From Candidatus Kryptoniota bacterium (GTDB lineage: Bacteria > Bacteroidota > Ignavibacteria > Kryptoniales > JAKASW01), in assembly GCA_036567965.1 (NCBI GenBank), contig DATCTN010000021.1, positions 8,906 to 72,905 of the forward strand: a stretch of 64,000 nucleotides of DNA, read 5' to 3'. The first letter of the stretch is position 1; each line of letters opens with the position of its first letter. The position numbers and the translations under genes are program-made. Shown piece by piece: positions 9,111 to 52,850 of this stretch. The notes under the pieces are model-generated. The model saw only the letters and a program-made list of their open reading frames with translations, was not told where the DNA came from and did no database searches.

Positions 9111-9188
9111 TGAAATTGTTTTGGCAGAAATCAGCCGATCTTTTCGGCGAACTGCTCATGGAGTAACTCATTCGTCTCTTCGTTTCGT

Positions 9189-35043: not shown

Positions 35044-35547
35044 CAGAGGATTGAACGGCCTCCAGATGGACCATTGCTTGAAAGATCCTCAACTCTCCTC
35101 CCCGAAAGTGGATATCACTTTTTATTTTGAGGAGAGATTGAATATTTCAGAATCAATCTCTAAGATGTGTTGTTGTGTGCTTCGGTGCGGCAGGTGGGCG
35201 TTTGATTTGGAAGAAGTCTAAGTAAATGGACGCGAGTCTTGGACTACCGGACGGCCACGAAATCGGCCTCTGCCCATGTTATTCCGGTGTAGTCGTGAAC
35301 ACTATTGCAGGCTTCTGACATAGCTGTGATGAATCGAGACGTGACATTCACCGAATCATTAATCATGTGTTAAAGTTTGAGAAGGGAATGCCGATGATGC
35401 TAGTAAACGATGCGGGCAACCTTTTTAGAAGACAACAAGGCTTTTTTTGTGCATATATTTTTGGAACCGCTTCCAGAACAAAGTTCGTCGTGGGTGAAGT
35501 CTCAATCCGAACGACAGCAATTTCTGAAAGGTCACACTCAATTGAGA

Positions 35548-38148
35548 ATGTCTGACTTGATCAGGCGCCTTATCCTGACCGTCCTCTTGATTGCATCGAT
35601 GCTTTCGATGATGACGGACGCAGTTTATGCCTTAGATCCCCAAAAGACAATTTCGCAGTATGGTCACAATGTCTGGCTGCGACAGAACGGTCTTCCGGCA
35701 AATCTGGTGAACGTTGCATTCCACACTAGCGACGGATATTTATGGCTAGGCACTTCGGCCGGGTTGTTTAGATTTGACGGAGTGAATTTCACAAATGTCC
35801 CGACCAATCCACTAAATCCGCGTGACAGGGAAACAGTGACAGCGCTGTGCCAGACGAGCGACGGAAGTCTCTGGATCGGAACCATATTCAGCGGACTCCG
35901 CAGACTGAGTGGTGACAGCATGTCTGTCTACGGATTGAAACAGGGATTCTACGACACTCAAGTATGGTCGTTAATGGAAGATAAGTCGGGACATCTCCTC
36001 ATTGGCACTTCAATCGGGCTATTTACATTTACGGCAGGAGGTTTCAAACCGATCCTTGAAAGCCCGAACTACGTTGCAGCTGTTTGTGAAGACTCTCTCG
36101 AAAGGATTTGGGTTGGAACGCATGATGGCGTATTTGTTTTCCCGGAATCTTTGCTGACGGATAAGTCCGGATCTATCAGGATGCAAAATATTTCGTCTAA
36201 AGACGGCCTGCCCAACGACGTAACAACATGCCTTCTTGCCGATGAGCGGGGAGGTGTCTGGATCGGGTCTTACAGCGGGCTCGCTTATTGGATAAATGGA
36301 AAGATCTCTACTTTCGGTATGAACAACGGGCTACCAGACTACCATGTCAATTCCATATTTGAGGACCGGGATGGAAATATCTGGGTCGGCACAAGAAACG
36401 GCCTCAGCAGGTTTAATGGCGGAAAGTGGACGACTTATAATCAGAACGACGGGTTGACCGACAACAATGTAACTTCATTCGAAGAAGACAATGAAGGAAG
36501 TCTGTGGGTGGGTACGTCGAACGGATTGAATCAGTTCGAAGACGTAAACATGACCACCTACACGACGAGCGAAGGACTCGCCAGCAATTACCTATCCAGT
36601 GTTCTGGAGACGCAAGATGGTACGCTCTATTTCCTGAGCGATCAGGGGGCGAGTGTCACAGCCATGAAGAATGGTGAGACGAGGGTTTACAACATTTCGG
36701 TTGGTCCCGCATACGTATCGCGTGACGGCAGTCTTTGGATCGGCCAGACCGGCGTGCTCAACCGCATCAAAGACGGCATCCTGACCTCCTATAAATCGGA
36801 AGCTGGAATCCCGGTCAAGTGGATCTCCGCCATAACTGAAGATAGTAGAAGCCTCATTATATATGTCGACCACACAGGCCTTTTCAGGTTTAAGAACGGG
36901 ATGATCTCACCGTATAAGATTTCAAGCGGTGCGGAGTATCCCGCTGCAGAGGCTGTCATGTGTTTCTACTGGCAAAGGAGCGGCGACATATTGTGGGTGG
37001 GAGCGGCAGACTCGCTCGTAAAAATTGAAGGAGGGAAGATCACCGGTTACACGACCGCCGACGGACTCGCGGGAAACTGGAACAGTTCTTTTTATGACGA
37101 TCACCAGGGGAATTTGTGGATCAGCTCTCCCCAGGGAGGTTTAACGCGTTATCATGACGGCAAATTCACAGCGTACAACACAAGCGTCGGACTATTCACT
37201 AACTCTATATTCTGTGTTGTCGGCGACAATGACGGCGGCCTCTGGCTCAGCAGCCCGAGGGGGGTAGGACTGGTCTCGCTAACGGAGTTGAATGATTTCG
37301 CCGCACGCCGCGTCGATAGTATCCAGACGAAGGTGTTTGGCGTCGAAGACGGAATGAAGCGGGAAGAGTGCTTCGGGTTCTGGCAGCCTGCCGGCTGGAA
37401 AGACTTGCACGGAAATATCTGGTTCGCGACTCGCGAGGGCGCGGTGACTTTTAATCCGCGAAAGTTCAAATTAAATCAAATTGCACCTTCGGTTCTTGTT
37501 GAGCAGGTCGTTGCCGACAATATGGCCGTACCTCACCACGGATCTGTTGTGTTACCGCCCGGGACAGACAAGCTTGAGTTTCACTACACGGCGTTAAGTC
37601 TTGCCGCTCCAGATCGGGTGATGTTCAAATATGAACTGGTGGGATATGACAACACCTGGGTTGATCCGGGAACGCGACGCGTGGCCTACTATACTAACCT
37701 TCCTCCCGGAGAATACAAGTTCCGTGTGATCGCGTGCAACAACGACGGAATTTGGAATTACTCGGGAGCTGAATTCAGTTTTAACCTGAAGCCGCATTTT
37801 TACGAAACCTACTGGTTCTACATCCTGATGATATTATTGTTTTGCGGAGTGGCGTTCGGAATCTATCGATTGCGTGTTTGGCAGCTCCTCGCAAAGGAGA
37901 AGGAACTGAACGTTCGTATCCAGGAAGCACTGGCAAACATCAAGACGCTCGGCGGCCTGATTCCAATTTGTTCTAACTGCAAGAAAATCCGCGACGATAA
38001 AGGCTATTGGGAACAGCTCGAAGGATATATACAGAGTCACTCAGAAGCGCAGTTCTCACATGGCATTTGCCCCGATTGTGCCGCGAAACTCTATCCGGAT
38101 TACTACAAGTCGAAAGGCAATGAACCGGACAGTTCCTCCGGCCGATAA
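35548..38148 (+). CDS. Transmembrane sensor: two-component-regulator propellers plus Y_Y_Y domain plus TM helix plus short 4-Cys cytoplasmic tail (no kinase)
   Basis: Signal/TM segment LILTVLLIASMLSMM. Many GL..n.V..i.eD..G.lWiGT propeller repeats. Y_Y_Y motif PGEYKFRVIACNNDGIWN. TM helix YWFYILMILLFCGVAFGIY. Tail IPICSNCKKIRDDKGYWEQLEGYIQSHSEAQFSHGICPDC. Confidence 0.85.
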   Translation: MSDLIRRLILTVLLIASMLSMMTDAVYALDPQKTISQYGHNVWLRQNGLPANLVNVAFHTSDGYLWLGTSAGLFRFDGVNFTNVPTNPLNPRDRETVTALCQTSDGSLWIGTIFSGLRRLSGDSMSVYGLKQGFYDTQVWSLMEDKSGHLLIGTSIGLFTFTAGGFKPILESPNYVAAVCEDSLERIWVGTHDGVFVFPESLLTDKSGSIRMQNISSKDGLPNDVTTCLLADERGGVWIGSYSGLAYWINGKISTFGMNNGLPDYHVNSIFEDRDGNIWVGTRNGLSRFNGGKWTTYNQNDGLTDNNVTSFEEDNEGSLWVGTSNGLNQFEDVNMTTYTTSEGLASNYLSSVLETQDGTLYFLSDQGASVTAMKNGETRVYNISVGPAYVSRDGSLWIGQTGVLNRIKDGILTSYKSEAGIPVKWISAITEDSRSLIIYVDHTGLFRFKNGMISPYKISSGAEYPAAEAVMCFYWQRSGDILWVGAADSLVKIEGGKITGYTTADGLAGNWNSSFYDDHQGNLWISSPQGGLTRYHDGKFTAYNTSVGLFTNSIFCVVGDNDGGLWLSSPRGVGLVSLTELNDFAARRVDSIQTKVFGVEDGMKREECFGFWQPAGWKDLHGNIWFATREGAVTFNPRKFKLNQIAPSVLVEQVVADNMAVPHHGSVVLPPGTDKLEFHYTALSLAAPDRVMFKYELVGYDNTWVDPGTRRVAYYTNLPPGEYKFRVIACNNDGIWNYSGAEFSFNLKPHFYETYWFYILMILLFCGVAFGIYRLRVWQLLAKEKELNVRIQEALANIKTLGGLIPICSNCKKIRDDKGYWEQLEGYIQSHSEAQFSHGICPDCAAKLYPDYYKSKGNEPDSSSGR

Positions 38149-38190: not shown

Positions 38191-39633
38191 TCAGTTCGTT
38201 CCGCTTTTTTTCCAGAGGGCGTTCATTTGTTCGAGGGATACGCCCTTCGTCTCCGGAACCATTCTCCACATGAACAGTCCGGCGAGAATCGCCATCAGAC
38301 CATATACCCAGTACGCAAACCCGTGGTGGAACATCTGTGTCAATAATGTGCTCTTGTCGAGCATGGGGAATGTCCACGACACGAGATAGTTTGAAATCCA
38401 CATCACCGCCACTGAAATTGACATCGCTTTTCCCCTGATCTCATTCGGGAAAATCTCGGACAGCAATACCCATACGATCGGTCCCCACGAAAAAGAAAAG
38501 CCGGCCATGAAAATGAGCATGCACACGAGCGCGCCGATGCCGAGGCTGGAAGTTTGAAATACAAAACCGAGGCCGATCATTGATATCGCCATTACTCCCG
38601 CCCCGGCCAACTGAAGAGGCTTGCGTCCGAACCGGTCGACTGTGGTAATGGCGACGATAGTGAAAAGAAAATTCACGGATCCCACGATTAGTGTTTGCAG
38701 GAGCGCGGCGCTCGTCCCGCTGCCAAGGTTCTTGAAAATCTCCGGGCCGTAGTAGAGCACGACATTGATTCCCACAAATTGTTGGAAGAAAGCCAGAAGA
38801 ATTCCGATCATCACCAACTTCAGCCCGAATGACAAGAGTCTTCCTTGCTTGAACGCGAAGGAGTTCTTGATCTCATCTATAATGCGACGCGCGTCCTCCT
38901 CTCCGTTAACCCTGATGAGTATCCGCAGAGCTTTCTCGTTTTGATCGTTCATGATAAGCCATCTCGGCGATTCAGGGATGAAGAACAGAAGAATGAAGAA
39001 AAGACAGGCCGGGATTATTTCCGAACCGAACATCCATCTCCAGCCTGATTCGTTCAACCACACCTCGTTTCCCTGGAATGAGACAAAATAATTCACGAAG
39101 TACACAAGGATCATCCCGATAATTATTGCGAGCTGGTTATATGAGACAAGCTTGCCCCTTTTCCGCGCCGGCGCGATTTCTGCGATGTACATTGGGGAGA
39201 GAAGCGATGCCATCCCCACTCCTATCCCGCCGATGATCCTGTAAATGGTGAATTGCGTCAGAAATGAATAACCGCCGGTTCCGATTGCCTTGTAACCCAA
39301 TTCCGGAAGTGCGGAACCTACCGATGTTATCATGAAAAGTATCGCGGAGATAAGGAGCGATGTTCTCCGTCCGAATTTGTTGCTCATGAATCCCGCTATC
39401 GCGCCGCCGATAATGCATCCTATCAGCGCACTTGAGACCGCGAATCCGAGGAGAGAATTTGCCGACGTTTCCGCCAGCCCTCTCGGGAGTACGAAATAAT
39501 AGTTGAGTGCGCTCACCGTTCCCGATATGACCGCCGTGTCATATCCGAACAACAATCCTCCGAGTGTCGCGACCAACGTAATTAGTAGGGAGTAAGAGTC
39601 TTTCTGATTTTCCTGAGAGTCATTCATCGTCAT
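38191..39633 (-). CDS. MFS sugar porter (sugar:H+ symporter family)
   Basis: Sugar-porter signatures are present: GGLLFGYDTAVISG, FGRR, PESPRWL, PETKG. It has 12 TM segments. Confidence 0.9.
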   Translation of the reverse strand: MTMNDSQENQKDSYSLLITLVATLGGLLFGYDTAVISGTVSALNYYFVLPRGLAETSANSLLGFAVSSALIGCIIGGAIAGFMSNKFGRRTSLLISAILFMITSVGSALPELGYKAIGTGGYSFLTQFTIYRIIGGIGVGMASLLSPMYIAEIAPARKRGKLVSYNQLAIIIGMILVYFVNYFVSFQGNEVWLNESGWRWMFGSEIIPACLFFILLFFIPESPRWLIMNDQNEKALRILIRVNGEEDARRIIDEIKNSFAFKQGRLLSFGLKLVMIGILLAFFQQFVGINVVLYYGPEIFKNLGSGTSAALLQTLIVGSVNFLFTIVAITTVDRFGRKPLQLAGAGVMAISMIGLGFVFQTSSLGIGALVCMLIFMAGFSFSWGPIVWVLLSEIFPNEIRGKAMSISVAVMWISNYLVSWTFPMLDKSTLLTQMFHHGFAYWVYGLMAILAGLFMWRMVPETKGVSLEQMNALWKKSGTN

Positions 39634-39719
39634 GCCCGGTTCTTTCTTTTCCCGACTGGGATATCAATATCATCAATCGGCAGATTCGATTTCCCCCTCG
39701 ATTCGACGTGGAACGATCT

Positions 39720-40649
39720 TCACTTTCTCGATCGGACGACTTCCGCGATCTTCCTGATATGCTCAGGCGTTGTACCGCAGCATCCGCCGATTATGTTTGC
39801 GCCTGCTTCAATGAGCGGATTTATCCACAACACAATGTCCTCCGGTGATTGAGGATAGACCGTCTTCCCGTTCATCGTTAGTGGCAAACCGGCGTTCGCC
39901 TGGATGAGTACCGGTATGGTGCCGTCGACGCGCCGCAGTTCCTTCGTTATGTCGACCATTGCCTCGATTCCGTTTCCGCAATTAGCTCCGATGATGTCTG
40001 CACCTGAGGCGATGAGCGCATCTGCTGCAGCTTCCGGTGTTGTGCCCATCATCGTGTGGAATCCTGCTTCTTTATTCCCGTCAAACGTCATTGTACAGAT
40101 CACTTCGCATGTAGTACTGTCACGCGCTGCTTGTATCGCGCAGCGCGCCTCTTCGATATCAAACATGGTCTCCACCACGATAGCGTCGGCGCCTCCGGAT
40201 GCAAGCGCCTCTGCCTGCTCAGCAAAACATTTGTACAATTCTTCGGTTGTTATGTCTTCCATCATTAGAATTTTTCCTGTGGGTCCGACTGAACCGAGGA
40301 CATACACATGGTCGCCGGCCGCTTCGCGCGAAATTTCTGCCGCGGTCTTGTTTATCAAGACAGTCTTGTCTGCCAGCCCGTAAGAGTGGAGCTTTACTCG
40401 GCTTCCGCCGAAGCTGTTGGTCTCGATCATGTCGGCACCGGCACTCACATAGCTTCGCGCTATGTCCAGGACTTCAGATCTGTGTTCAAGGTTCCACAGT
40501 TCGGGGCACTCGTTCAACTTGAGACCCTTCTTGTGGAGCTCGGTACCCCATGCGCCGTCCGAAATGAGGATTTCTCCGGCCAGGATTCTTGCCTTTATTT
40601 TATTCTTAGGGTTCAACGAGTTGTCTCCATGTAATCTAAAGGTTCGCAA
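39720..40649 (-). CDS. Homocysteine S-methyltransferase-domain protein (MetH Hcy-binding-module-like)
   Basis: LISDGAWGTEL, GADMIETNSFG, and Zn-ligand cysteines in GANCGNG and GGCCGTTPEHI. There is no pterin-binding or B12 domain in this ORF. Confidence 0.85.
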   Translation of the reverse strand: MRTFRLHGDNSLNPKNKIKARILAGEILISDGAWGTELHKKGLKLNECPELWNLEHRSEVLDIARSYVSAGADMIETNSFGGSRVKLHSYGLADKTVLINKTAAEISREAAGDHVYVLGSVGPTGKILMMEDITTEELYKCFAEQAEALASGGADAIVVETMFDIEEARCAIQAARDSTTCEVICTMTFDGNKEAGFHTMMGTTPEAAADALIASGADIIGANCGNGIEAMVDITKELRRVDGTIPVLIQANAGLPLTMNGKTVYPQSPEDIVLWINPLIEAGANIIGGCCGTTPEHIRKIAEVVRSRK

Positions 40650-41632
40650 AGCGCAAGAAGGTTCTTACTCGGCGTGCCCGCGGGAATCTCGCATCCGGCA
40701 TTGACCATGAACGGGTTCCCCACGATCCTGTACGAGTTCACGACGTGTGACCGGATCGATGCCGGTGTCCCTCTCAAGACACCTGAGACGGGGTCGATGT
40801 TCCCGCTGATCGCAACTCGCGGGCCCACGGCCTCACGAACCGCCGCGAGATCCACCATATGGTCCACATCAAGAATGTCGACGTCGAGTCCGGCGATGCC
40901 CGGTAGAAGGTGGGTGATATTCCCGCAGATGTGAAGTCTGACTAATGCTCCGGACGAGTGTATCGCATCGACAAGCAACTTCTCTCTCTGTTGTATCAGA
41001 GTTTCGTAAGTCTCGGGCGGAAGCTGGCTCGCTACGGCGTCTCCGATCCCTATTGTGTCGGCGCCTGCAGCTACCTGTGCTTTCGCAAAACTTATTCCGG
41101 CTTGCGTGCAAATGTCCATCAGGTCTGCGACGAAGCCGCTGTCTTCTATCGTGTCCATCATGAAATTCGCCACGTCGCGCAGGTCGGCTGCTTCGGCTGC
41201 AGGTCCCTCGACCCAGCCCATAATCGAGAAATCTTTGGAATCCAGTCGTCTGTAATCCTCAATGGCCCGAATCCGGTCCGCCATCCTCGTCGATGTTTTG
41301 CTGTCGGGCTTTAAAAGGAATGACAGGTCTTTGGAATTTTCAAGTGGGTGAGTGCAGCGCGGTACACCATCGCGAACATAAGTTATCTTCCCGCCAAATC
41401 CCTCCGTCTCCCGGTATGGATCCGATATCGCGCTGAGCTGGTCGAAACCGAATTCACGCGCACACCTGCGGTTCGCCTCAACAAGTACTTGGAAATCAGA
41501 GGCGAACTCTCCGTAATTGGATCCGATACGCTCGGCGGCATACTGCATCACTATCGGGATGCGTGGTACATGGTCGACTCGTTCGCCCTTTAACATCCCG
41601 AGGTATCGTTCAAGGCTGTTCACCTGGAGCAC
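40613..41632 (-). CDS. UROD/MtaA-family methyltransferase, paralogue C
   Basis: N-terminal GERVDHVPRIP. Zn motif H-x-C in VRLHICGN and a distal Cys in NAGCEIPAGTP, as in methylcobamide methyltransferases (MtaA/MtbA). Confidence 0.75.
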   Translation of the reverse strand: MLQVNSLERYLGMLKGERVDHVPRIPIVMQYAAERIGSNYGEFASDFQVLVEANRRCAREFGFDQLSAISDPYRETEGFGGKITYVRDGVPRCTHPLENSKDLSFLLKPDSKTSTRMADRIRAIEDYRRLDSKDFSIMGWVEGPAAEAADLRDVANFMMDTIEDSGFVADLMDICTQAGISFAKAQVAAGADTIGIGDAVASQLPPETYETLIQQREKLLVDAIHSSGALVRLHICGNITHLLPGIAGLDVDILDVDHMVDLAAVREAVGPRVAISGNIDPVSGVLRGTPASIRSHVVNSYRIVGNPFMVNAGCEIPAGTPSKNLLALCEPLDYMETTR

Positions 41633-41641
41633 CTTTCACAA

Positions 41642-42361
41642 TTACTCAACAGAGTCATCCCGTCGTCTCAGATTCCTGTAGAGACAATCTGAATCCTCGC
41701 AGAGGCTGCAAGTATAAGGGTTGAATTTAACCGATGTTCCGATCCCGATTATACCGCTCACTGATTTTACGGGGCGCATAAGACAAGAATCTGTCAACTC
41801 AATTCCACAGAACCTGTCGGGAAGGAGACTGAATAGTTTCTTTTGCTCCGATACGTCCCATCCGCAATAGCCGGGGCTATAGCGGTTCGTGATTTTCAAG
41901 CCAAGCTTCCCAACATACTGCTTCAGTGATTCCTGGACATAATCCATCCCGCTTTCGACCGCCAGGGAACCGTAAACATCGTAGATATATCCTTTGAGAA
42001 AATCTCCTTCCTTCATGAGCGCTCTGGATTTTTCGATGATTTCGTTTCCCGCAGTGCAGACAAAAATGGCGATTTGCTCCGATCTTCTGAGTTGTTGAAA
42101 GACGACTTTTCTGGTCTCGAAATGTTTTTTTTCGGCAATAAGCATGCCTTGCTCGTCGTCGAATTCTAGACCACCGACTAACCTGTAGCCGCCGACCACT
42201 TTGCATAACATCCCGGCGTCCTCGAGGACTTCTTCGATTGTCTCGTTCACCTGAGGAGGAGCGGCTGCAGGCCCGTATCCGATTACAATAGCGATCTCTG
42301 ATTTTGAAACGATAATGTCTTTCGATTCGATTGAATATGTCTCAATATCTGAAGGCGTCAA
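41642..42361 (-). CDS. Methionine-synthase activation-domain-like protein (Met_synt_B12)
   Basis: NRYSPGYCGWDVSEQKKLFSLLP...GIELTDSCLMRPVKSVSGIIGIG matches the RxSPGYgdW...P.KS.sg core of the MetH reactivation (SAM-binding) domain. Confidence 0.75.
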   Translation of the reverse strand: MTPSDIETYSIESKDIIVSKSEIAIVIGYGPAAAPPQVNETIEEVLEDAGMLCKVVGGYRLVGGLEFDDEQGMLIAEKKHFETRKVVFQQLRRSEQIAIFVCTAGNEIIEKSRALMKEGDFLKGYIYDVYGSLAVESGMDYVQESLKQYVGKLGLKITNRYSPGYCGWDVSEQKKLFSLLPDRFCGIELTDSCLMRPVKSVSGIIGIGTSVKFNPYTCSLCEDSDCLYRNLRRRDDSVE

Positions 42362-43385
42362 TTACTCTCCTCTCATGTTTGGCGTTGAATTCCCTGACTG
42401 CCTTGAAGAAGGCCGCTACATTTTCTGCCGGCGTGCCTGGCGGGAGATCGCATCCGGAAGATATTATGAAATTCCCCTTCGAAATGGTTGCCGACAAGAG
42501 CTGGGCGGTTGACTCGTGAACTCTGTCGGGGGTGGAGGATTTGAAGACTCCGACGGGATCCAAGTTTCCCATCACGAGAACATTGGAAGGGACAATCGAG
42601 AGCACGTCGAGCAAGTCGACCTTATTCCCAAAGTGAAGTCCTCCCGCTCCGGTTGAGATCATCGATCGGGTTACGTGCCCGGTATTTCCACAATTATGGA
42701 GAATGAATAGAAAGCTGCCGTCTTGTACTTGAGATACAATTTCTCTGATATAATGAGAAGAGAAATCGTCGCATAAATCGGCAGACAACAATCCTGCAGC
42801 TGGTTCAGCCATGATTATTCCGTCGGCCCCAACCTTTTTTGTTTCCAGGATATATTGGGCGAGAAACAGTGAGCATTTTCTAACAAGAACTGATATCGCC
42901 TCCGGTTCGATAAGGATGGAGGTCATGATTTCGGATAGCCCGAAAAGTCTCCCAGCGAGTGAGAAGGGGCCGATGCAGACTGCAAACACAGGCTTGTCAG
43001 TTATTGTCTTTGTCACATTCTGTAGGGAACTCAGTTGCTGCCGGATGCGCGCCATATTGAGAGAAGGGACGACAAGTTTTTCAATGGCTGCCGAATCCTC
43101 GAGAAGCTTACCTGACAAGGAAGGTATTTCGTTTTCATGAAAATCCACGTCGGATCCGAATGCTTCTGCTTCGAGCGTCAAATCCATCATCATTGTTGCA
43201 GCATCGGGGGCGAATCGCTTTTGAATCGCGATAATCGCCGAGTATTGTACTTCATGAGATTTGACTGCATCGATTGTTCGCTTCCGAATAATCTCGATTC
43301 CGGGATGCGTCATTATCGGTATAGCAAGCCTCTTCGGGGAATTGCGAATGGACTTAACCCATTCTTCCATGTTGCGGTTCAACAT
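42342..43385 (-). CDS. UROD/MtaA-family methyltransferase, paralogue B
   Basis: H-x-C in FILHNCGN and a distal Cys in SSGCDLPPGTP. AEAFG and MAEP motifs are typical of MtaA/CmuA-like proteins. Confidence 0.8.
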   Translation of the reverse strand: MLNRNMEEWVKSIRNSPKRLAIPIMTHPGIEIIRKRTIDAVKSHEVQYSAIIAIQKRFAPDAATMMMDLTLEAEAFGSDVDFHENEIPSLSGKLLEDSAAIEKLVVPSLNMARIRQQLSSLQNVTKTITDKPVFAVCIGPFSLAGRLFGLSEIMTSILIEPEAISVLVRKCSLFLAQYILETKKVGADGIIMAEPAAGLLSADLCDDFSSHYIREIVSQVQDGSFLFILHNCGNTGHVTRSMISTGAGGLHFGNKVDLLDVLSIVPSNVLVMGNLDPVGVFKSSTPDRVHESTAQLLSATISKGNFIISSGCDLPPGTPAENVAAFFKAVREFNAKHERRVIDAFRY

Positions 43386-43399
43386 CTCGGCATCTTCTT

Positions 43400-44068
43400 T
43401 CAGGTTGAGAGCTGGTTCAAATACTTGACTGCTCCCTGAGGATCCGGAGAGTAAAAGTTCGCGCCGATGCTCGCGCAGAAATCAGCGGACAGGGGAGCAC
43501 CACCGACAAGTATTACCTTCTCAGGATATTTGTCGCGTATTCCTCTAACGATCGATCCCATGTTTGCCATCGTGGTTGTCAGAAGGGCGGACATCCCGAC
43601 GACACAGTCCGGATATTTCCCGATCGCGTCGAGAAATTTCTCGCTCCTGACGTCGACTCCGAGATCGATTACCTCCCAACCTGCACCTTCAACAGTCATT
43701 GCGACAATATTCTTGCCGATGTCGTGAAGGTCGCCCATCACAGTTCCGACTACAAACACGCCCTTCCGTTTTATTTCGCCCGACGCGAAATAGGGTTTCA
43801 GGTGCTTCATCGCTGCCGTCATCGCTTTGGCCGCGATCAACATTTCGGGCACGAATGCTTTTCCTTGAGAAAATTTGTCGCCGATCCTCGACATCCCGGG
43901 AATCAGTGCGTCGTTAAGGATTTCCTCCGGATTGATCCCGATGTCCAGGGCAGCTTTACAAAGTTCATCCGCTCCATCCTGACCTTTCATCGCCGGCGGA
44001 AACGGCGACGCTTTATTGATTTTCCCGAACTCGATGCAGGTGGTCAGTTGTTCAAGAATCTGGTTCAT
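43400..44068 (-). CDS. Corrinoid (cobalamin-binding) methyl-carrier protein
   Basis: B12-binding_2 cap helix bundle plus Rossmann domain. It has the base-off/His-on motif GDLHDIGKN (DxHxxG), SALLTTTM and VGGAP. Length is 222 aa, typical of MtaC/MtbC-type proteins. Confidence 0.9.
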   Translation of the reverse strand: MNQILEQLTTCIEFGKINKASPFPPAMKGQDGADELCKAALDIGINPEEILNDALIPGMSRIGDKFSQGKAFVPEMLIAAKAMTAAMKHLKPYFASGEIKRKGVFVVGTVMGDLHDIGKNIVAMTVEGAGWEVIDLGVDVRSEKFLDAIGKYPDCVVGMSALLTTTMANMGSIVRGIRDKYPEKVILVGGAPLSADFCASIGANFYSPDPQGAVKYLNQLST

Positions 44069-44104
44069 CTAGTAGTCCTTTGAGAAAGAAGTCGATTTGT
44101 AAAT

Positions 44105-45370
44105 TCAGTATTTCCTGTACTTATTAAAAGTGTCGATCACGGCCATGAGATTCTCTATCGGAACTCTGGCCTGAATATTATGGACTGTGTTGAATACAAA
44201 GCCTCCACCCTGCGCGAACGTCTCTATCCTTGAACGTACTTCGGATGCCACCTCTGCCGGCTTACCGAAGGGGAGTGTCTTCTGTGTGTCAACTGCGCCT
44301 CCCCAGAATGTGAACTTATCTCCGAACTCGGACTTCAGTCGGGCGGGTTCCATCTCGGCTGCAGAACACTGAACGGGATTCAATATGTCAAAACCAGAAT
44401 TCGCAAACTCGGGCAGGAGACGGTATACCGACCCGCAAGAATGAATGAAGGATTTCCAGCCTGTATTCTTGTGGATCCAGTTGTTCACTTCTCTATGGAA
44501 GGGTTGATACAGATCGCGGTATGCTTCCACGGAAATGAATGGTCCCCTCTGCGTTCCGAAGTCTGTGCCGCTTATGAAAACGGCAGTTACCTTGTTTCCG
44601 ACCTGTGTAAATAGTTTCTCGAGGTTTTGTATTCCTATCTCACATTGTCTCTCGAATATTTTGTACACGAAATCCCTGCGGGAGATTGTGCTGATGTACC
44701 AGTCTTCTATACCGCGGATGCCTTTGGGATTCTTAAGCCAGGGTGCGGGGACCATCGCGATGTCACCGAAAGCGGTACCGCCGAATGTTGCGAAGATCGC
44801 TTTATCTGTTTCCGCATAAAGGCGATCCGCTCCCATTTTGAAATGATTCAGGTCCTCGTCCGATATAGGAACGAACTCCTCGAGATTGTCGCGGACATCC
44901 AGGCGACTTTCGTCAATCTCTTCCTGTCTAACAATAGCGTCGAAGTAGAATCCTCCATTCGGCATCCTCCCGCTCGGAGACACGCTCTTGTCACCTTCGG
45001 GGTAGAGGAGAATGTCGCCATTGGGCTCGGGCGCCGTATTGAATCCTTCAGGGACGAGTACCGGGGTGCCGTCGAAGAGGCACCACTCCTTCCAGCCTTT
45101 GTTGGGGAATCCGAACATAGTCTTGCGTGAGATTAATCCAACAACGTCGATCCCGATCGAGTCCATGAGATCGCTTCCGACTTCTCCGAGCATTTGGTAC
45201 GGTTCTGTCACTTTCACCGGAGTGCCGGGTGAATCGAGTGCAAGAGCCTGTCGGAGTTTATATAGTGTGCTCGCGTGAATCCCCGTAACCGCAGACCCGC
45301 CCATGTCGAATGGAACCATGTCAGGTTCCTTGTGGTCCAACGAGGTGAGGACTCTTTCTCTGGAGATCAT
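44105..45370 (-). CDS. UROD/MtaA-family protein, paralogue A (longest, about 420 aa)
   Basis: An internal ATG gives MISRERVLTSLDHKEPDMVPFD. H-x-C in FIHSCGS. The distal Cys position is replaced (FNTVHNIQ). Extra insertions relative to paralogues B and C. Confidence 0.7.
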   Translation of the reverse strand: MISRERVLTSLDHKEPDMVPFDMGGSAVTGIHASTLYKLRQALALDSPGTPVKVTEPYQMLGEVGSDLMDSIGIDVVGLISRKTMFGFPNKGWKEWCLFDGTPVLVPEGFNTAPEPNGDILLYPEGDKSVSPSGRMPNGGFYFDAIVRQEEIDESRLDVRDNLEEFVPISDEDLNHFKMGADRLYAETDKAIFATFGGTAFGDIAMVPAPWLKNPKGIRGIEDWYISTISRRDFVYKIFERQCEIGIQNLEKLFTQVGNKVTAVFISGTDFGTQRGPFISVEAYRDLYQPFHREVNNWIHKNTGWKSFIHSCGSVYRLLPEFANSGFDILNPVQCSAAEMEPARLKSEFGDKFTFWGGAVDTQKTLPFGKPAEVASEVRSRIETFAQGGGFVFNTVHNIQARVPIENLMAVIDTFNKYRKY

Positions 45371-45536
45371 GTTCCTGACCGCTTGCCCAAGTTGACCTTC
45401 AAAATTAATTGCAATAGATAAAATCAGAACAAATTTCGTCCGTTTCAAGGAAAGATTTGTTCATTTGACCGGGAAGAACGATGGATGTGGACTAAATCAA
45501 TGTAAAAAATCCCGGGGAGGCACGGAGGAGAGACTT

Positions 45537-46634
45537 CTATTTCGGAGGGTAAGCAAAGATCATCTTCATGCCTTCGTCTGTTTTATACTCGACTTCTTTT
45601 GTTGAAAAGGGAATGAGAAATCTGTCGCCCAACTTGAGACCTTCACGATGGCCTCCTGCTGCCATCGAACCGATCCCTGACTTCACGATTCCCACATGAA
45701 ACGAGTCGGATCTCCTCCGGAATTTGTTTGTGACATCAAGCTGTAACACTTCAAAACACCGGGTCTGCTTTTCATCAATGAGTATGTACTCGATTCCGCC
45801 TTTGCCGCTTCTCGTTATCCTTGGAGGACAAAAATGTTTTCGCCGCACATCCTCTCCGGAAGTTTGGGTGAAGTCGATCATTTCGATCGCGAAATTCACG
45901 TCCCGACCCATGAACCGTGATGGCTCCGGCAGGATGTAACCTCCTCGCTCAAACTCGAGTCTTACTACGAAGTCCGTTGGCTCCATGATCTCTATCATGA
46001 AGATGCCTTCGCCGATTGCGTGAGGCATTCCGCCTGGAATTAGAAATACGTCCCCGGCATGAACTGGAACTTTTTCAAAGCACGACAGCAATTCGCTTGT
46101 CTCCTGCTTCAGTACGATTTCCCGGAATCTTCCTTTTGATGGTGCATGTTGAAATCCGAGATAGATGTAAGGTTCGCTGATCTCCTTTCGGACTCCGAGA
46201 ATGACGTACGCTTCTGTTTTCCCTGAATTGCTATTCAGATGCTTCTTCGCGAACTGGAGCGTAGGATGTGCCTGGATGTGAAGCCTGATATTCGAGTCCA
46301 GGAGCTTAACGAGAAATTGAGCTTCCGATCCGTACTTTGCGAAATGAGTCGGCCCGAGAATTTCTGCGGGGAATTTCTGAAGGAGATTCTTCAGTGAGAT
46401 CTCTTTTTCACCGAGTGCCACCCTTGAGATTCCCTCATTAACGGATTCATTGCGCCCCGGATTTATCGCCGCAGTTGTTGAGCAAACCCAGTCTTCTGGA
46501 AAATGAGAATCATCCGCGTCAACTTTGCCCTCGAGCTGGTCGAGAAGCTTGCCGCCCAGATAGCTTCTCCAAACTCGATTAGGAAGAAGTCTGATCAGTG
46601 GAGGTATTGCGGCGGATGATTCTTTACTCGACAA
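45537..46634 (-). CDS. Class I phosphomannose-isomerase-like cupin sugar isomerase
   Basis: VWRSYLGG, LHIQAHP, GKTEAYVILG, GDVFLIPGGMPHAIG and IEIMEPTDF parallel the ManA/Pmi motifs (vWGG, SvQvHP, GKtE.W, GD...ipaGt.HA, E.q..SD). Confidence 0.7.
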   Translation of the reverse strand: MSSKESSAAIPPLIRLLPNRVWRSYLGGKLLDQLEGKVDADDSHFPEDWVCSTTAAINPGRNESVNEGISRVALGEKEISLKNLLQKFPAEILGPTHFAKYGSEAQFLVKLLDSNIRLHIQAHPTLQFAKKHLNSNSGKTEAYVILGVRKEISEPYIYLGFQHAPSKGRFREIVLKQETSELLSCFEKVPVHAGDVFLIPGGMPHAIGEGIFMIEIMEPTDFVVRLEFERGGYILPEPSRFMGRDVNFAIEMIDFTQTSGEDVRRKHFCPPRITRSGKGGIEYILIDEKQTRCFEVLQLDVTNKFRRRSDSFHVGIVKSGIGSMAAGGHREGLKLGDRFLIPFSTKEVEYKTDEGMKMIFAYPPK

Positions 46635-48780
46635 GGAGGACGACCACCTGATACTGACGGATTTTGAGCGGGACCGAGATTGTCGACGTTTGTCGCGCGA
46701 ACTGGAGTTCAGTGTCGGAGATGATATCCTTCACCGAGCGCACTTCAAGACCGTCGCAGTCCAGCTCAAGCGAACCGGATTTCGGAGTGTCTTGCGAATT
46801 GATGACATATACGATTCGCGCGGTTTCGGTCTCGTGAACTTTTATATCTAGGTATGAGTGATCGTTGGAATTGAACTTAGTTCCGAGAGTAACGCCCGCA
46901 ACCGATGCAAAGCTCAGGACTAGCCTGTTCACTGGATTGTCCGTTCTCTTGAAGTAACTCGCGCCAAGCGGCACCGCGCAAAGGATCGCCCTCCCTTTGC
47001 CGTAACGGTTCTGAGTCACGGCGACCTCTCCGTTGTCTACAAAGGAGCCAAGAATATTCACGCTGCTTCTCGGGTGGAGATGCTCTCTGAAATATCTTCC
47101 CTCGAATTGAAAAGCCTCTTTCTTCACGGCAGCATTTATGCGAATTCTGGAGTTCTTATCAGATGCGATCCAGTCGGTCCGTGTCGCTCCAAACACATCA
47201 TCGAGCCCCGCGCCTGGACTCGTAGTGTAGGCAAAATCTAGCTCGTCAATCGTCGCAGTCCGTGCATCAGCCACGATCCAACCGCCAAGCTTCACATACT
47301 CCTTGAGAATCTCAGCGCACTCGCGCCGCATGACGATCTGGAACGGAAGAAAAATAATTTTGTATTGTCCAAGAGATTTCAGGTCGATACCACGGTCCAT
47401 CCTGACAATGTCCGTCACGATATTCGCTTCATGGAATGCTTTGAAGATGCCCGCATAACTTTCATACATAAATTTGTTGGTAGCCATTTCAGTGGTTTGC
47501 TCGAGTGTCTTGATCAAACCTACGACATCCACAAGGACGGCGACCTCAGCCTTTCGAAGGTGGGCGCGACTGAGCACTTCACCATACCTTTGGACCACAG
47601 CTCCGAGATCGCGGACCGCTTCACCTCGGGGTGCCAGCTCTCCATCGACGCGACATAGTCCCCTTCCGAGCGACTGGCGGCCCCGCGTAAATGGCCGCCA
47701 TTTCCAGTAGACTAACCCTTTGCAATCATTGGATAGAGCTGTCCACGCTAAAAGTGTTACCGCGTCCTTCGTCAGGTAACCGTTGAGCGCGAGACCATTC
47801 TGGGCGTTCGTGAAGAGCTCCGTTAGGATGTAGTCCTTGTTACCCGCCGAACACCTGACTGCGTTGAATGCAAGGTTGTGCAGCCAAAATGGGACCTCCT
47901 CATTTCCATGCTCGCGTTCCCAAATGTCGGGGTAGTAAGAAATTCCATGTATATCATTCTTGTCGGCAAGTGGTAAGTCGTCGACATCGTAAGACCCGAA
48001 ATCCTTGAAGCTCATCCAGGTCGTCCCGACGGAGTTTGCATTGACCGCGTGAGTTTTGTCGTATCTTCTCAATGTCTGAATCAATTCACCGAGAAGAATT
48101 CCATTCAGTTCGTTCCTGAATATTTTCCAATCTATCTGCGGCATTGAGGAGTCCCAGTTGTCATTCAGGAAAGGTGATACTTGAAGCCAGTTGTTGTATT
48201 CTTTCCCCCACGAACGCCGGAGCGCCGGCAAGGTTCCATACCTCTTCTTCAGCCAGTTCCGGTACCGCTCCATGACATGTTCGGCGTTGGAGCTGTAATG
48301 AGGTTCGTTCCATATGTTGTAGAACGCGAGTGCGGGGCTGCTGCCGTATCTCCCAATCACAGCTTTGAAGTATTCTTCGACGAGCGGGTACACCCTCGGG
48401 TCCGCGAAGTCCACGTTTTCTCTATTGTTCTTATTTCCATTCTTCAGATTGTACTGCTGCCACAGACCTTCGATCTCACTGAATTTCCAGATGGGGAAAT
48501 AGTGACTGCACTGTTCCTCCTTGAGAAGCAACGGAACAAATTTCATTCCGCATGATTCGATCCTCCGTACGATGTAATCGGTGCGCGTCCACACAAGCTC
48601 TTTGGTATCGGGATCCCATTGGCTCATCGGGAAAATCATGACATGACTTATCCCCGCTGCCGTCATAAGCTCGATGTCCCTGTCGGCCCGCTTGAAGAAT
48701 TGTTCGTCGGTTACGAACTCTTCATGGAAGATGTGGTACACCGTTCCGACGATGATCGAGCTCCCTGCGGAGAATGTCAT
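46624..48780 (-). CDS. GH42-family glycoside hydrolase (beta-galactosidase / alpha-L-arabinopyranosidase family)
   Basis: AFYNIWNEPHY (acid/base NEP), RYRNWLKKRYGTLPALRRSWG, GISYYP. The C-terminal KIIFLPFQIVM...YVKLGGWIVADA resembles the GH42 trimerisation domain. No signal peptide, so it is probably cytoplasmic. Confidence 0.8.
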   Translation of the reverse strand: MTFSAGSSIIVGTVYHIFHEEFVTDEQFFKRADRDIELMTAAGISHVMIFPMSQWDPDTKELVWTRTDYIVRRIESCGMKFVPLLLKEEQCSHYFPIWKFSEIEGLWQQYNLKNGNKNNRENVDFADPRVYPLVEEYFKAVIGRYGSSPALAFYNIWNEPHYSSNAEHVMERYRNWLKKRYGTLPALRRSWGKEYNNWLQVSPFLNDNWDSSMPQIDWKIFRNELNGILLGELIQTLRRYDKTHAVNANSVGTTWMSFKDFGSYDVDDLPLADKNDIHGISYYPDIWEREHGNEEVPFWLHNLAFNAVRCSAGNKDYILTELFTNAQNGLALNGYLTKDAVTLLAWTALSNDCKGLVYWKWRPFTRGRQSLGRGLCRVDGELAPRGEAVRDLGAVVQRYGEVLSRAHLRKAEVAVLVDVVGLIKTLEQTTEMATNKFMYESYAGIFKAFHEANIVTDIVRMDRGIDLKSLGQYKIIFLPFQIVMRRECAEILKEYVKLGGWIVADARTATIDELDFAYTTSPGAGLDDVFGATRTDWIASDKNSRIRINAAVKKEAFQFEGRYFREHLHPRSSVNILGSFVDNGEVAVTQNRYGKGRAILCAVPLGASYFKRTDNPVNRLVLSFASVAGVTLGTKFNSNDHSYLDIKVHETETARIVYVINSQDTPKSGSLELDCDGLEVRSVKDIISDTELQFARQTSTISVPLKIRQYQVVVLLVE

Positions 48781-48784
48781 GGGA

Positions 48785-49744
48785 TTATTCGCGGGGAGTT
48801 TCTCTCAGACTTGACAAACAGCTGATGAGGTAATCAAGATGCTGTCCAATTTTTGGCCATGCTTGGAATTCAAGACCGAAATCGTATTTCATATCGGAGA
48901 CATCGAAGAGGGTAACGTTGTCGCTCCATCCCTTGTCTCTGACGATGATCTTACTCTTTGAGCGGCACTTTCGCACCGCCTCCGCTGCGATATTCTCCCA
49001 TGAAACAAATGTCCTCGATAATCCGAAATAAGTCCTTCTGTTCAGGTTACTCTCGAGAACACTGACATAGAGTTTTGCAAGATCCCCTGCCCAAATAAAC
49101 TGAGTCCCGTCGTTCTTCACTACTTCTATTTGTTCGTTTCGCAGCGCATTCTTCACGATTGTCTCAAATCTTCTATCGCGCTGTGTGCTTGCGCCCGTGA
49201 CAACGGGATTTCCGAATGTATATCCGGGTCTGATGATGTTCACCCGCATATGAGTATTGTATGACACGGCGAGCAGGTAGTTCTCACTCGCAGCCTTGGT
49301 CGCCCCATAAAGAGTGGTCGGGTGATGTTTTGTAGTGGTCTCGACTTTCGATATCAGCCCGTCTATTTTGTTCTGTTCAACCATATATACATAATCGTTG
49401 ACTGCAGTCGAAGAAGTGTACAAGAATTGCTTCACCCCGGCTGCTGCGGCGAGATCGGCCATAAGAACGGTGGGGAGTGTGTCTTCTACGAGGACTTCCG
49501 CGGCAGACTCCTTTGTATACTTCAACGCCACGTGCACGCACGCATCCTTGCCTTCTACGAGCATTGCAAGGAGAGCTCCGTCCCCCAGGTCGCCTTCCAC
49601 GACTTCAAGGCCATACTGGTCCAATAATGCCGGGACCTTATTCCTGTCCCTTGCGAGGATAGTGACGTTATTCCCCCGTGAGAGGAGTTCCATGGCGACG
49701 TATGATCCGATGAAGCCAGTACCGCCGGTTAGAAACACGTTCAT
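48785..49744 (-). CDS. NAD(P)-dependent epimerase/dehydratase (extended SDR)
   Basis: MNVFLTGGTGFIGSYV (Rossmann) and YGATKAASE (YxxxK). Confidence 0.9.
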   Translation of the reverse strand: MNVFLTGGTGFIGSYVAMELLSRGNNVTILARDRNKVPALLDQYGLEVVEGDLGDGALLAMLVEGKDACVHVALKYTKESAAEVLVEDTLPTVLMADLAAAAGVKQFLYTSSTAVNDYVYMVEQNKIDGLISKVETTTKHHPTTLYGATKAASENYLLAVSYNTHMRVNIIRPGYTFGNPVVTGASTQRDRRFETIVKNALRNEQIEVVKNDGTQFIWAGDLAKLYVSVLESNLNRRTYFGLSRTFVSWENIAAEAVRKCRSKSKIIVRDKGWSDNVTLFDVSDMKYDFGLEFQAWPKIGQHLDYLISCLSSLRETPRE

Positions 49745-50025
49745 TCCAATTTTCCCATTGTCCTACGGCAGAAGGAAGTTAATAAGACGGAGTCACAATT
49801 GATAATGCGCAAACGAAGCTCGATGAACTTGAAACCTCAAACTGAAAAGTCCTGACGATGATGGGACGGAAACCTAAAAGTGTCGAAGAAATTTGATTCT
49901 TCTTTGGGGGCACAGTAAAATGATTGCAGGGTTCCTGAAGAAGCGTTGCTTTAATCGTCCGCTTCTCTTCGCAACTGTTGCATTTGCGCGGGGGACTCCA
50001 TAGCTGGAAAAATCTCGGAGAATCC

Positions 50026-52612: not shown

Positions 52613-52850
52613 TGCACCTTTGGCAAGAGCTTGAACGGCTGGCTCAGCAGGCCGCTGGTTAGCCCGGTTGATGTGAGGTAAAAAAGGGGGCAAAGTGTCC
52701 TGCATCATTTTTGAATTTGGAAGGAAATTCCTAACTTGTTTAGAACAAAGTGCATAAGGCCATGCATTTCTGCCAGATGACAATTCACCGCCAGAGGGGG
52801 CGTCGAGATGTCGTGTGTCAAAACCAGACGTCCACATAAGGAGTTAGCAA

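Follow-up and report, generated by a model that had tools for sequence, protein, structure and literature searches.

Gene content of the locus

Investigating a stretch of 64,000 nucleotides from a Candidatus Kryptoniota bacterium (NCBI GenBank assembly GCA_036567965.1, contig DATCTN010000021.1; the whole stretch is called the window here), we analysed ten adjacent genes at positions 38191-49744, which place a glycosidase and a sugar porter beside a corrinoid (B12-dependent) methyl-transfer system. A first-pass annotation had read them as one operon, a candidate pathway for the anaerobic demethylation of O-methylated sugars or glycosides; its ten co-directional minus-strand genes and the domains assigned to them were borne out by a check of the open reading frames (ORFs), all ten of which were confirmed, as well as by Pfam and NCBIfam profile searches (Table 1). 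The locus is, however, two separately conserved modules side by side rather than one conserved unit: a block of three genes, encoding an SDR-type protein, a glycoside hydrolase of family 42 (GH42) and a phosphomannose isomerase (PMI)-like protein, and a seven-gene core (38191-45370), probably with its own promoter, which runs from the methyltransferase-like protein URO-D A to the porter.

Two gene starts had to be considered. Alignment with homologs places the start of URO-D A at the ATG at 45370 in place of the 447-aa longest ORF, a start that the gaps listed in the first-pass annotation already implied. The homocysteine S-methyltransferase-domain protein (HMT) probably starts at a TTG overlapping the URO-D C stop by 4 nt, as in the gene call of the source contig, and not with the 37-nt overlap that was first described and that results when the longest ORF is taken (TTG at 40649, 309 aa). 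The GH42 protein passes the Pfam cutoffs (PF02449 88.3 bits, PF08532 73 bits) and carries the WNEP acid/base motif of clan GH-A; no signal peptide was found in it, and it is divergent from the solved GH42 beta-galactosidases (top PDB match 7.8e-19). Of the PMI-like label only a weak cupin relation stands, since every Pfam and NCBIfam match of this protein lies below cutoff (manA TIGR00218 74.7 vs 116.2).

No terminator-like site was found in either of the large gaps (45371-45536 and 39634-39719), and a scan for sigma-70 promoters and intrinsic terminators, with a model unsuited to Bacteroidota, gave nothing over shuffle expectation. An Rfam scan of the window revealed no cobalamin or other riboswitch, and no tRNA was found in the window.

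Table 1 Features of the locus, from the upstream end of the minus-strand genes to the sugar porter
Feature	Position	Strand	Evidence
SDR-type NAD-dependent epimerase/dehydratase-family protein, 319 aa	48785..49744	-	Pfam Epimerase 5.7e-27
GH42 glycosidase, cytoplasmic, 718 aa	46624..48780	-	Glyco_hydro_42 8.8e-25 and Glyco_hydro_42M 3.1e-20
PMI-like cupin protein, 365 aa, weak assignment	45537..46634	-	PDB 1qwr 8e-7
Promoter-like motif TTTG-N22-TAATTTTG	45400..45433	-	Bacteroidota-type consensus match only
URO-D A, 421 aa, His-x-Cys...His zinc site	44105..45370	-	Pfam URO-D 7e-13, C-terminal half only
Corrinoid (B12-binding) methyl-carrier protein (CorP), 222 aa	43400..44068	-	Pfam B12-binding_2 and B12-binding, DLHDIG
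URO-D B, 347 aa, MtaA-like, His-Cys-Cys	42342..43385	-	Pfam URO-D 1e-53
Stand-alone MetH-type reactivation (AdoMet-binding) domain protein (Act), 239 aa	41642..42361	-	Met_synt_B12, 38 bits
URO-D C, 339 aa, most MtaA-like paralog, His-Cys-Cys	40613..41632	-	PDB MtaA 4ay7 4.9e-25
Homocysteine S-methyltransferase-domain protein (HMT), 298 aa	39720..40616	-	Pfam S-methyl_trans 3.8e-73, full profile
XylE-type sugar-porter MFS transporter, 478-480 aa, last cassette gene	38191..39633	-	Pfam Sugar_tr/MFS_1; XylE equivalog

A sugar porter tied to the corrinoid cassette

Relatives of the locus were collected in three surveys: URO-D A was searched against one genome per GTDB species (at least 590 species, 80 flanked loci inspected), URO-D B against metagenome contigs (80 loci), and the GH42 and the porter against a protein collection, followed by the contexts of their closest relatives on long contigs. 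Neighbour counts rest on tblastn matches, and spurious reverse-frame ORFs of high-GC loci (L072_-3, L072_-4) were discarded.

The porter passes the NCBIfam XylE equivalog NF007484 with 722.7 bits (cutoff 608), and its sequence is 100% identical to a protein recorded by NCBI for a Candidatus Kryptonia metagenome-assembled genome; XylE relatives of 60-65% identity occur in aerobic Flavobacteriia. Its four closest relatives on long contigs (L171-L174, 72-74% identity), picked blind to their neighbours, are in four out of four cases the last gene of a corrinoid/URO-D cassette; with L086, the nearest relative of the whole cassette, all five of the closest porter relatives examined (72-74% identity) terminate such a cassette, and the porter subclade of at least 72% identity is cassette-linked in 6/6 cases, the window included. 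The order of genes is GH31(PA14) / CorP - URO-D B - Act - URO-D C - HMT - porter - PFK (a phosphofructokinase-family gene) in L174 and GH31(PA14) / CorP - Act - URO-D C - HMT - porter in L173, the GH31 gene lying directly upstream of the cassette in both, URO-D A - URO-D C - porter in L172, and CorP - URO-D C (frameshifted) - porter in L171. Across these six loci (window, L086, L171, L172, L173, L174), URO-D C and the porter occur in all, CorP in five, HMT in four, URO-D A and URO-D B in three each, GH31 in two and GH42 in one. The cassette is built of modules, among which the sugar porter accompanies it most faithfully; the coupling of porter and cassette is real, specific and conserved. The connection of sugar uptake with corrinoid methyl transfer, which had been proposed from the window by itself, is therewith stronger than could be known at that point.

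Some cassettes carry additional genes. A small unrelated gene is inserted right after the corrinoid-protein gene in L171 (7556-7921) and L174 (4823-5191), whereas in L173 (6363-6788) it follows the next gene, Act; two of the three belong to the 23S_rRNA_IVP family (PF05635) and one to DUF559, and together with the frameshifted URO-D C of L171 they look like a recurrent insertion point or ongoing decay. The phosphofructokinase-family gene (469-475 aa; 346 bits vs an ATP-PFK cutoff of 400) adjoins the cassette or the SDR-GH42-PMI-like block in L088 (12657-14069), L173 (10899-12308), L174 (10474-11883) and L168 (9994-11421).

The GH42 block as a separate module

The GH42, PMI-like and SDR genes were found neither in the 160 loci of the URO-D A and URO-D B surveys nor in the five close relatives of the cassette. 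L086 has the same seven genes as the core (58-82% identity) without a GH42, and where the window has SDR-GH42-PMI it has a HypD-type glycyl-radical enzyme and its activase. The three-gene block for its part recurs by itself: L168 carries it alone (68/67/55% identity) without corrinoid genes, GH42 orthologs of 64-67% identity in L168, L169 and L170 have no corrinoid gene nearby, the one in L169 lying among other glycosidases and the one in L170 near a PMI-like gene, and PMI-like orthologs (55-58%) adjoin or neighbour GH42 in L168 and L170.

Between the two modules, inside the 166-nt gap, a promoter-like motif ends 29 nt upstream of the URO-D A ATG. The composite, which we take to be the Bacteroidota-type promoter consensus, has four copies in the 64 kb against 0.85 expected, and this is the sole copy between 38 and 50 kb, so that it may be regarded as a possible internal promoter of the seven-gene core. 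No terminator-like site lies in the same gap, and read-through between the blocks may therefore occur. Taken together, the SDR-GH42-PMI-like block is a module of its own for processing glycosides in the cytoplasm, conserved separately from the core, whose adjacency to it may be opportunistic here, and the proposed membership of its three genes in a conserved unit falls. The arrangement of the core itself, on the other hand, is not chance, because its gene order is kept in other genomes. Of the recurrent co-occurrence which the first-pass annotation had suggested as a check, that of porter and cassette is repeated in relatives, while that of GH42 and cassette is not conserved.

The glycyl-radical enzyme of L086 was also considered as a member of the pathway and rejected, being a HypD equivalog with its own activase (6750-9911: trans-4-hydroxy-L-proline dehydratase, 1321 bits, and a radical-SAM activase upstream of the cassette). 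Convergent to the porter, the window encodes a 912-aa Reg_prop/Y_Y_Y beta-propeller protein (35410-38148, plus strand) with a weak PorZ-like match, in which no kinase or DNA-binding domain was found; it travels with GH42 and not with the cassette, because two paralogs (56-57%) lie downstream of the GH42 ortholog in L169 (12343-17477). Three ORFs near or divergent from the operon have no Pfam match (49978-51498, plus; 52818-53300, minus; 53893-54390, plus), and the 506-aa protein among them adjoins a YghZ-type aldo-keto reductase (51614-52612; 463 bits vs cutoff 448). Another uncharacterised glycosidase, of 1056 aa, is encoded at 27041-30211 (plus strand), at a distance of 8 kb from the operon; its matches to GH5 (Cellulase) and GH42-like profiles are weak, and it falls into no NCBIfam family.

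Zinc sites of the three URO-D paralogs

Judged by profile scores far under the respective cutoffs, the three URO-D proteins are neither HemE nor MtaA/MtbA. The hemE equivalog TIGR01464 (cutoff 302.95) is missed by URO-D B (84.4 bits) and URO-D C (75.1 bits) and not matched by URO-D A, TIGR01463 (cutoff 235.4) gives 142.7 for C and 123.3 for B, and the MtaA equivalog (cutoff 400) gives 107.9 for C and 104.8 for B; URO-D A scores 37.7. To our knowledge, HemE is also without the zinc-ligand motif that A, B and C all have.

The H-x-C-G motif of MtaA is kept by all three paralogs, and the difference lies in the third zinc ligand: B and C share the Cys of MtaA, whereas A invariably has His. This His-Cys-His arrangement is invariant in 19 sequences of URO-D A, and in the wider family Asp replaces the motif Cys in 13 of 78 representatives. 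Relatives of URO-D B have HNCG in 46/46 and the third Cys in 44/45 cases; in URO-D C, which aligns with MtaA 4ay7 so that LHICGN and GC(E/G)I are matched, the zinc ligands are conserved in 10/10 relatives. S- and Se-methyltransferases of the URO-D superfamily use His-Cys-Cys, and the O-methyltransferases swap one or both Cys residues for carboxylates or non-ligands (Kountz and Balskus, PMC10418091). By this rule B and C look thiol- or thioether-handling and A does not, suggesting that B and C are probably acceptor-side or S-methyl enzymes rather than O-demethylases, with C as the candidate methyl-corrinoid:thiol methyltransferase (MT2). The pattern would fit A as the substrate:corrinoid methyltransferase (MT1), and C (and B) together with HMT as the acceptor side. 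Three UROD/MtaA-like genes are thus present as first described, but their roles are not equivalent; a grouping with HemE, which would have spoken against the demethylation proposal, was not seen, and one with MT2 enzymes was seen in part, B and C having MT2-type top matches.

The URO-D A family

The URO-D A family is large, unusually conserved and uncharacterised. Its homologs are 58-78% identical across phyla, in at least 590 species of Bacteroidota, Acidobacteriota, Chloroflexota, Planctomycetota and KSB1 as well as Hydrogenedentota, Armatimonadota, Bacillota and Bathyarchaeia, and an exhaustive search yielded 828 clusters at 50% identity below 1e-30. A PDB sequence search with URO-D A gave no match. 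In its AlphaFold (AF2) model (pTM 0.81) large insertions interrupt a UroD/MtaA barrel, for which a fold search returned distant UroD/MtaA matches only (TM 0.5-0.65, 10-14% identity) and no ligand-informative relative.

A corrinoid protein lies co-directional near URO-D A in 16/80 species-level loci. Eight Acidobacteriota loci show the classic layout of MT1, corrinoid protein, MT2 and activase, namely (HMT)-(DUF1638)-URO-D C-like-RACo activase-CorP-URO-D A, and in many of them A has a paralog in tandem. The non-thiol zinc site, the tandem paralogs and the pairing with a corrinoid protein and a C-like enzyme are the reasons why we take URO-D A as the candidate MT1 of the cassette.

The neighbourhood of URO-D A is also rich in sugar transporters, and three unrelated kinds of them recur beside it. 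A XylE-like sugar porter lies within ~5 kb in 12/80 loci (Planctomycetota, Hydrogenedentota, Bacteroidota), six of which are co-directional with a gap of at most 300 nt, the genes of L087 even overlapping by 4 nt. A FucP equivalog stands immediately upstream of URO-D A in L053. Five Chloroflexota or Bacillota loci have a LacI regulator near URO-D A, and in three of these five CUT2-type sugar ABC transporter genes are directly upstream. Porter, URO-D A and corrinoid protein come together in the window, L086 and L143, and in L043 URO-D A and the corrinoid protein are joined to an ABC sugar transporter instead.

Several other surroundings of URO-D A deserve mention. In L061, L064, L065 and L079 (KSB1/Phycisphaerae metagenome-assembled genomes) 'methyltransferase islands' consist of a RACo activase, a corrinoid protein and MtaB (Pfam 4e-162), then URO-D A and up to five more URO-D paralogs, L065 also having an Act-like gene (30%). 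In L072 (Chloroflexota metagenome-assembled genome, ~7000-10000) URO-D A is immediately preceded by genes for a sugar kinase of the PfkB family and for a RuBisCO-like protein, which is below all cutoffs with top matches to type III, OiaX and MtnW; further upstream stand a LacI gene and a PMI-like cupin gene (35%), 7 kb from URO-D A. L004 and L012 (KSB1) and L015 (Cytophagia) share a gene pair at +1/+2 after URO-D A, encoding a 377-411-aa protein with a weak ArgZ-like Rossmann match and a HAD-family hydrolase of ~290-300 aa; the substrate of those lineages might accordingly be phosphorylated or another one.

Corrinoid protein, activation protein and homocysteine module

The corrinoid protein consists of PF02607 and PF02310, with the DLHDIG (DxHxxG) His-on motif at residue 113; it is 78-83% conserved in related cassettes, and its matches to NCBIfam methyltransferase-cognate corrinoid proteins are below cutoff. 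HMT matches PF02574 over the full profile and has the zinc triad Cys224 / Cys290-Cys291, marking it by sequence as the methionine-forming acceptor module. The MetH-activation domain claimed for Act matches Pfam over ~50 residues in the window protein and became solid with a profile of six orthologs, which matches Thermotoga maritima TM0269 (PDB 1j6r, annotated as methionine synthase) over residues 8-207 at 3.4e-11; TM0269 is, we presume, a stand-alone MetH activation domain. Domains and motifs bear out the first description: the cassette is a corrinoid methyl-transfer system, in which the acceptor module is of the homocysteine-binding kind and the reactivation protein of the MetH type.

Pfam found no RACo/RamA domain protein among the ten window genes, RACo being present in the Acidobacteriota and KSB1 relatives. 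Likewise no pterin-binding module (PF00809) was found by Pfam among the ten proteins, and metH equivalog scores are far under cutoff. In most of the 80 metagenome loci the genes of URO-D B and Act are direct neighbours (Act detected by tblastn in 66), many of the remaining loci being short contigs. The activation protein further has invariant Cys residues beyond the part covered by TM0269 (C166, C185, C218-x2-C221-x4-C226); this cluster may be a metal or Fe-S site donating electrons for corrinoid reactivation.

Carbohydrate surroundings of related cassettes

The gene families around relatives of the cassette are overwhelmingly carbohydrate-related. Besides the GH31 genes of L173 and L174, L143 has the layout GH95 / porter - URO-D A / AraC / CorP - B, and in the soil loci L088 and L089 a unit CorP-URO-D B-Act-HMT, without porter, A or C, stands beside a GH42-like/DUF5597 protein, another URO-D, an aldo-keto reductase, UxuA and LacI. 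In most human-gut contigs, URO-D B-Act follows SusC-SusD-histidine phosphatase, so that by its gene content this locus is a very common human-gut Bacteroidales polysaccharide utilisation locus (PUL) with corrinoid methyl-transfer parts. The different combinations suggest a generic CorP/B/Act core with different substrate modules grafted on.

The gut arrangement was followed in L130 (contig SCPP01000021.1, 3599-17641), where SusC, SusD, histidine phosphatase, a URO-D B-like (53%) and an Act-like protein (40%) are encoded on the plus strand, and an SSF symporter, a 600-aa corrinoid fusion protein and a GH31 convergently; the GH31 is closest to alpha-xylosidases, below cutoff. Roughly 50 of the loci L095-L167 repeat the spacing of URO-D B, Act and an opposite-strand corrinoid gene. 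For the N-terminal domain of the 600-aa fusion protein there was no Pfam and no PDB match, and its hhalign alignment to URO-D A was insignificant.

Relation to known methyl-transfer systems

The architecture is of a known kind, the corrinoid three-component methyltransferase, with a plausible new substrate class, and its nearest precedents are the mlp clusters (PMC10418091) and MtgBCDE (PMC12478193). Type 1 mlp clusters (Kountz and Balskus, bioRxiv 2023, PMC10418091) also combine several MtaA-like URO-D methyltransferases with a corrinoid protein and an activator, lack, as the cassette does, a tetrahydrofolate methyltransferase, and are proposed to pass the methyl group to a thiol or methionine. 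By zinc site and description their Mlps resemble URO-D B and C in being His-Cys-Cys (SCMT-like). Unlike the cassette, however, mlp clusters use a RamA/RACE ATP-dependent activase, in place of which the cassette has the MetH-type (TM0269-like) activation protein and thus falls outside the mlp definition; they are mainly found in Firmicutes with selenium or sulfur genes around them, and have no HMT gene, no sugar porter, no carbohydrate context and no counterpart of the 421-aa His-Cys-His URO-D A.

In MtgBCDE, the glycine betaine demethylase/split methionine synthase of marine bacteria, one corrinoid protein serves a catabolic demethylase and a PF02574 homocysteine module (PMC12478193). With this system, as with the TM0269 split MetH, the cassette shares homocysteine-binding, B12-binding and reactivation functions on separate polypeptides. 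The donor modules of MtgBCDE, by contrast, are MttB-family (MtgB) and pterin-binding (MtgD), while those of the cassette would be of the URO-D family; the cassette adds a sugar porter and, judged by the ten genes, from which a pterin module is missing, is neither a canonical nor a split MetH.

With the methanogen system MtaB/MtaC/MtaA, the cassette would share the sequence of MT1, corrinoid protein and zinc-thiolate MT2, URO-D C aligning with the zinc ligands of MtaA, and in both systems the leaving group of the donor, a poor one (alkoxide or hydroxide), would be activated by zinc. The candidate MT1 is, however, of URO-D and not of MtaB fold, the donor is presumed to be a sugar, and coenzyme M, the acceptor of MtaA, is not that of the cassette, B and C reaching 105-112 bits against equivalog cutoffs of 400-600. 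The aryl methyl ether O-demethylases (Odm/Vdm/Mtv) of acetogens and Desulfitobacterium, compared by description, cleave the ether with a URO-D-superfamily MT1, which works together with a corrinoid protein, an MT2 and an activator, but they act on phenyl methyl ethers with their good leaving group, use tetrahydrofolate as acceptor and an ATP-dependent activator, and have no sugar transporter or glycosidase context; neither their tetrahydrofolate MT2 nor their ATP-dependent activase is among the ten genes. The only characterised demethylase of sugar methyl ethers is a cytochrome P450 acting on 6-O-methyl-D-galactose in marine Bacteroidota (PMC6292453). It resembles the cassette in being encoded with polysaccharide-degradation genes, but it is an O2-dependent monooxygenase releasing formaldehyde, unrelated in sequence and chemistry and unusable in anoxic habitats.

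Proposed function and alternatives

Gene content, motifs, conserved synteny and the specific coupling of porter and cassette are established by the above, and from here on we infer the class of substrate, the direction in which the methyl group moves, which proteins act as MT1 and MT2, and the thiol sink. We favour, with about even confidence, a core that imports a methylated sugar and demethylates it with the help of B12, homocysteine or another thiol receiving the methyl group. The XylE-type proton symporter would bring in a neutral methylated sugar, which URO-D A would bind, its His-Cys-His zinc polarising the methyl-bearing oxygen in a manner comparable to the activation of methanol in MtaB. 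The cob(I) form of the corrinoid protein would accept the methyl group and leave an ordinary sugar for central metabolism; HMT, the PF02574 protein, would move the methyl group from methyl-cob(III) to homocysteine, giving methionine, and the MtaA-like URO-D C and B would pass it to another thiol or to sulfide as a catalytic methyl sink. Oxidised cob(II) would be restored by the TM0269-like activation protein through reductive methylation. As substrate we would guess a small neutral O-methyl pentose or deoxyhexose, such as methyl-xylose; methyl-xylose and methyl-fucose are attractive guesses in view of a porter of the xylose type, the pairing with FucP in a relative and the GH31 and GH95 genes nearby. 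Of the pathway first put forward, the corrinoid cassette with its sugar porter is retained, the integration of GH42, PMI-like and SDR proteins is not, and two of its three URO-D enzymes are probably not O-demethylases.

Several points weigh against this reading. Apart from methanol, we know of no precedent for a corrinoid-dependent cleavage of an alkyl methyl ether as in a sugar, and homocysteine alone is insufficient to absorb one methyl group per sugar catabolised. By its XylE equivalog score the porter qualifies as an ordinary D-xylose transporter. L171, L173 and L174 keep porter and cassette without URO-D A, so that the substrate enzyme there has to be B, C or the product of a gene elsewhere. 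About 60% of the URO-D A loci have no informative neighbour, and in four KSB1/Phycisphaerae loci URO-D A follows a genuine MtaB and corrinoid protein, which is the place where MtaA (MT2) normally sits.

The main rival, which we consider unlikely, is a methyl-sulfur system, in which the cassette demethylates a methylthio compound (an imported methylthio-sugar such as 5-methylthioribose, or one of the methanethiol/dimethyl sulfide type) and hands the methyl group to homocysteine in an Mlp-type anaerobic salvage of methionine or sulfur. It stays alive because B and C have thiol-type sites and because L173 and L174 combine the porter with thiol-type methyltransferases only, A being absent. The best matches of B and C are MtaA-type, their His-Cys-Cys is an S-/Se-methyltransferase site, and a dismantling of methylthio ethers has been proposed for some mlp clusters (Kountz and Balskus, PMC10418091). 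The homocysteine module is in place as well, and the PfkB kinase and RuBisCO-like protein of L072 would suit such a route. On the other hand, URO-D A, whose association with sugar transporters is the widest of all members, has a site other than His-Cys-Cys and varies from Cys to Asp, its partner transporters are XylE-, FucP- and CUT2-type, and the GH31, GH95 and PUL partners suggest glycan-derived sugars. MtnK, MtnA, MarHDK and selenium genes were not seen in any inspected locus, and the activase is MetH-type, not RamA/RACE.

Next, CorP, URO-D B, Act and HMT could form a non-canonical split methionine synthase, in which a URO-D module replaces the pterin module and binds a common one-carbon donor; the cassette would then serve mainly to make methionine, and the porter would be a common xylose transporter that stayed nearby for reasons of regulation or history. 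This idea seems to us rather improbable. Exactly these four genes, without porter, A or C, make up the unit of L088 and L089, three MetH-like modules are present and PF00809 is absent among the ten genes, split systems are known (TM0269 and MtgBCDE, PMC12478193), and the porter does exceed the XylE equivalog cutoff. Against it, the porter is the terminal gene in 6/6 close relatives, including L171 and L172, which have no HMT, and a housekeeping methionine synthase would not be expected inside PULs or beside GH31; the gut PUL, moreover, has URO-D B, Act and a corrinoid fusion protein but no HMT.

The integrated ten-gene pathway of the first-pass annotation, in which GH42 frees a methylated galactoside or arabinoside, the cassette demethylates it and the PMI-like and SDR proteins process the product, is in our opinion quite doubtful. 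It has in its favour the co-directional genes, with gaps of at most 36 nt inside the blocks (apart from 39634-39719), the lack of a terminator-like site in the 166-nt gap, the carbohydrate-related nature of both blocks, the other glycosidases (GH31, GH95) adjoining related cassettes and the PMI-like homolog in L072. Against these stand the absence of all three genes from the 160 loci and five relatives, the recurrence of the block by itself and the promoter-like motif ahead of URO-D A; in addition, a monosaccharide-type porter offers a cytoplasmic glycosidase no obvious imported glycoside.

The Acidobacteriota, in which URO-D A occurs, include the methoxy-aromatic demethylator Holophaga foetida. 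Even so, and although the aryl O-demethylase MT1 enzymes OdmB and VdmB are in the URO-D superfamily (PMC10418091), the alternative also raised at first, demethylation of a methoxylated aromatic aglycone released from a phenolic glycoside, found no support and is very improbable: an aromatic-acid transporter or aromatic catabolic gene was not seen in any inspected locus, the transporters are sugar-type (PcaK 55 bits vs 723 for XylE in the case of the porter), tetrahydrofolate methyltransferase and ATP-dependent activase are absent from the window, and the cassette is conserved without GH42. As a possible identity of URO-D A, the Bathyarchaeia 'lignin O-demethylase' was considered and rejected, that system belonging to a different superfamily, MtgB.

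Beyond the window, demethylation of imported sugars by such cassettes could represent an unrecognised B12 route for sugar methyl ethers in anaerobes, which would be spread over Kryptonia of soil, Planctomycetota, Acidobacteriota, Chloroflexota and the Bacteroidales of the human gut, and in which members of the URO-D A family, or equivalents exchanged for them, would act together with a corrinoid carrier and thiol acceptors; we put this forward tentatively, as something short of an even chance. Candidate substrates of this wider route are methyl-xylose or methyl-fucose of pectin rhamnogalacturonan II and of algal or microbial glycans. A literature search found no description of corrinoid-dependent sugar demethylation, of the URO-D A family or of the gut PUL, in agreement with the earlier statement that such a system had not been described.

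Biological significance

Methyl-etherified sugars block the usual catabolism of sugars by isomerases and kinases, and they are found as 2-O-methyl-xylose and 2-O-methyl-fucose in pectin rhamnogalacturonan II, 4-O-methyl-glucuronate in xylan, 6-O-methyl-galactose in porphyran and as methyl sugars of microbial glycans. How they are demethylated in anoxic soils, sediments and the gut is a puzzle, because the only characterised demethylase needs O2. The locus offers a cloneable candidate, with a conserved cassette and its dedicated sugar importer, a very widespread uncharacterised methyltransferase family and related parts in an abundant human-gut PUL, and the hypothesis is directly testable with a handful of recombinant proteins. 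Should the methyl-sulfur alternative be true instead, the locus would stand for a new sugar-linked route of methionine salvage. If the proposed sugar demethylation is true, it would do without oxygen what the P450 enzyme does to methylated sugars with it, and corrinoid ether cleavage, so far a matter of aryl ethers and methanol, would take in the alkyl ethers of carbohydrates, a new substrate class for B12; it would link sugar-bound methyl groups to the production of methionine or volatile methyl-sulfur compounds, and it would mean a new B12 dependency of glycan foraging, with relevance to the competition for corrinoids in the gut.

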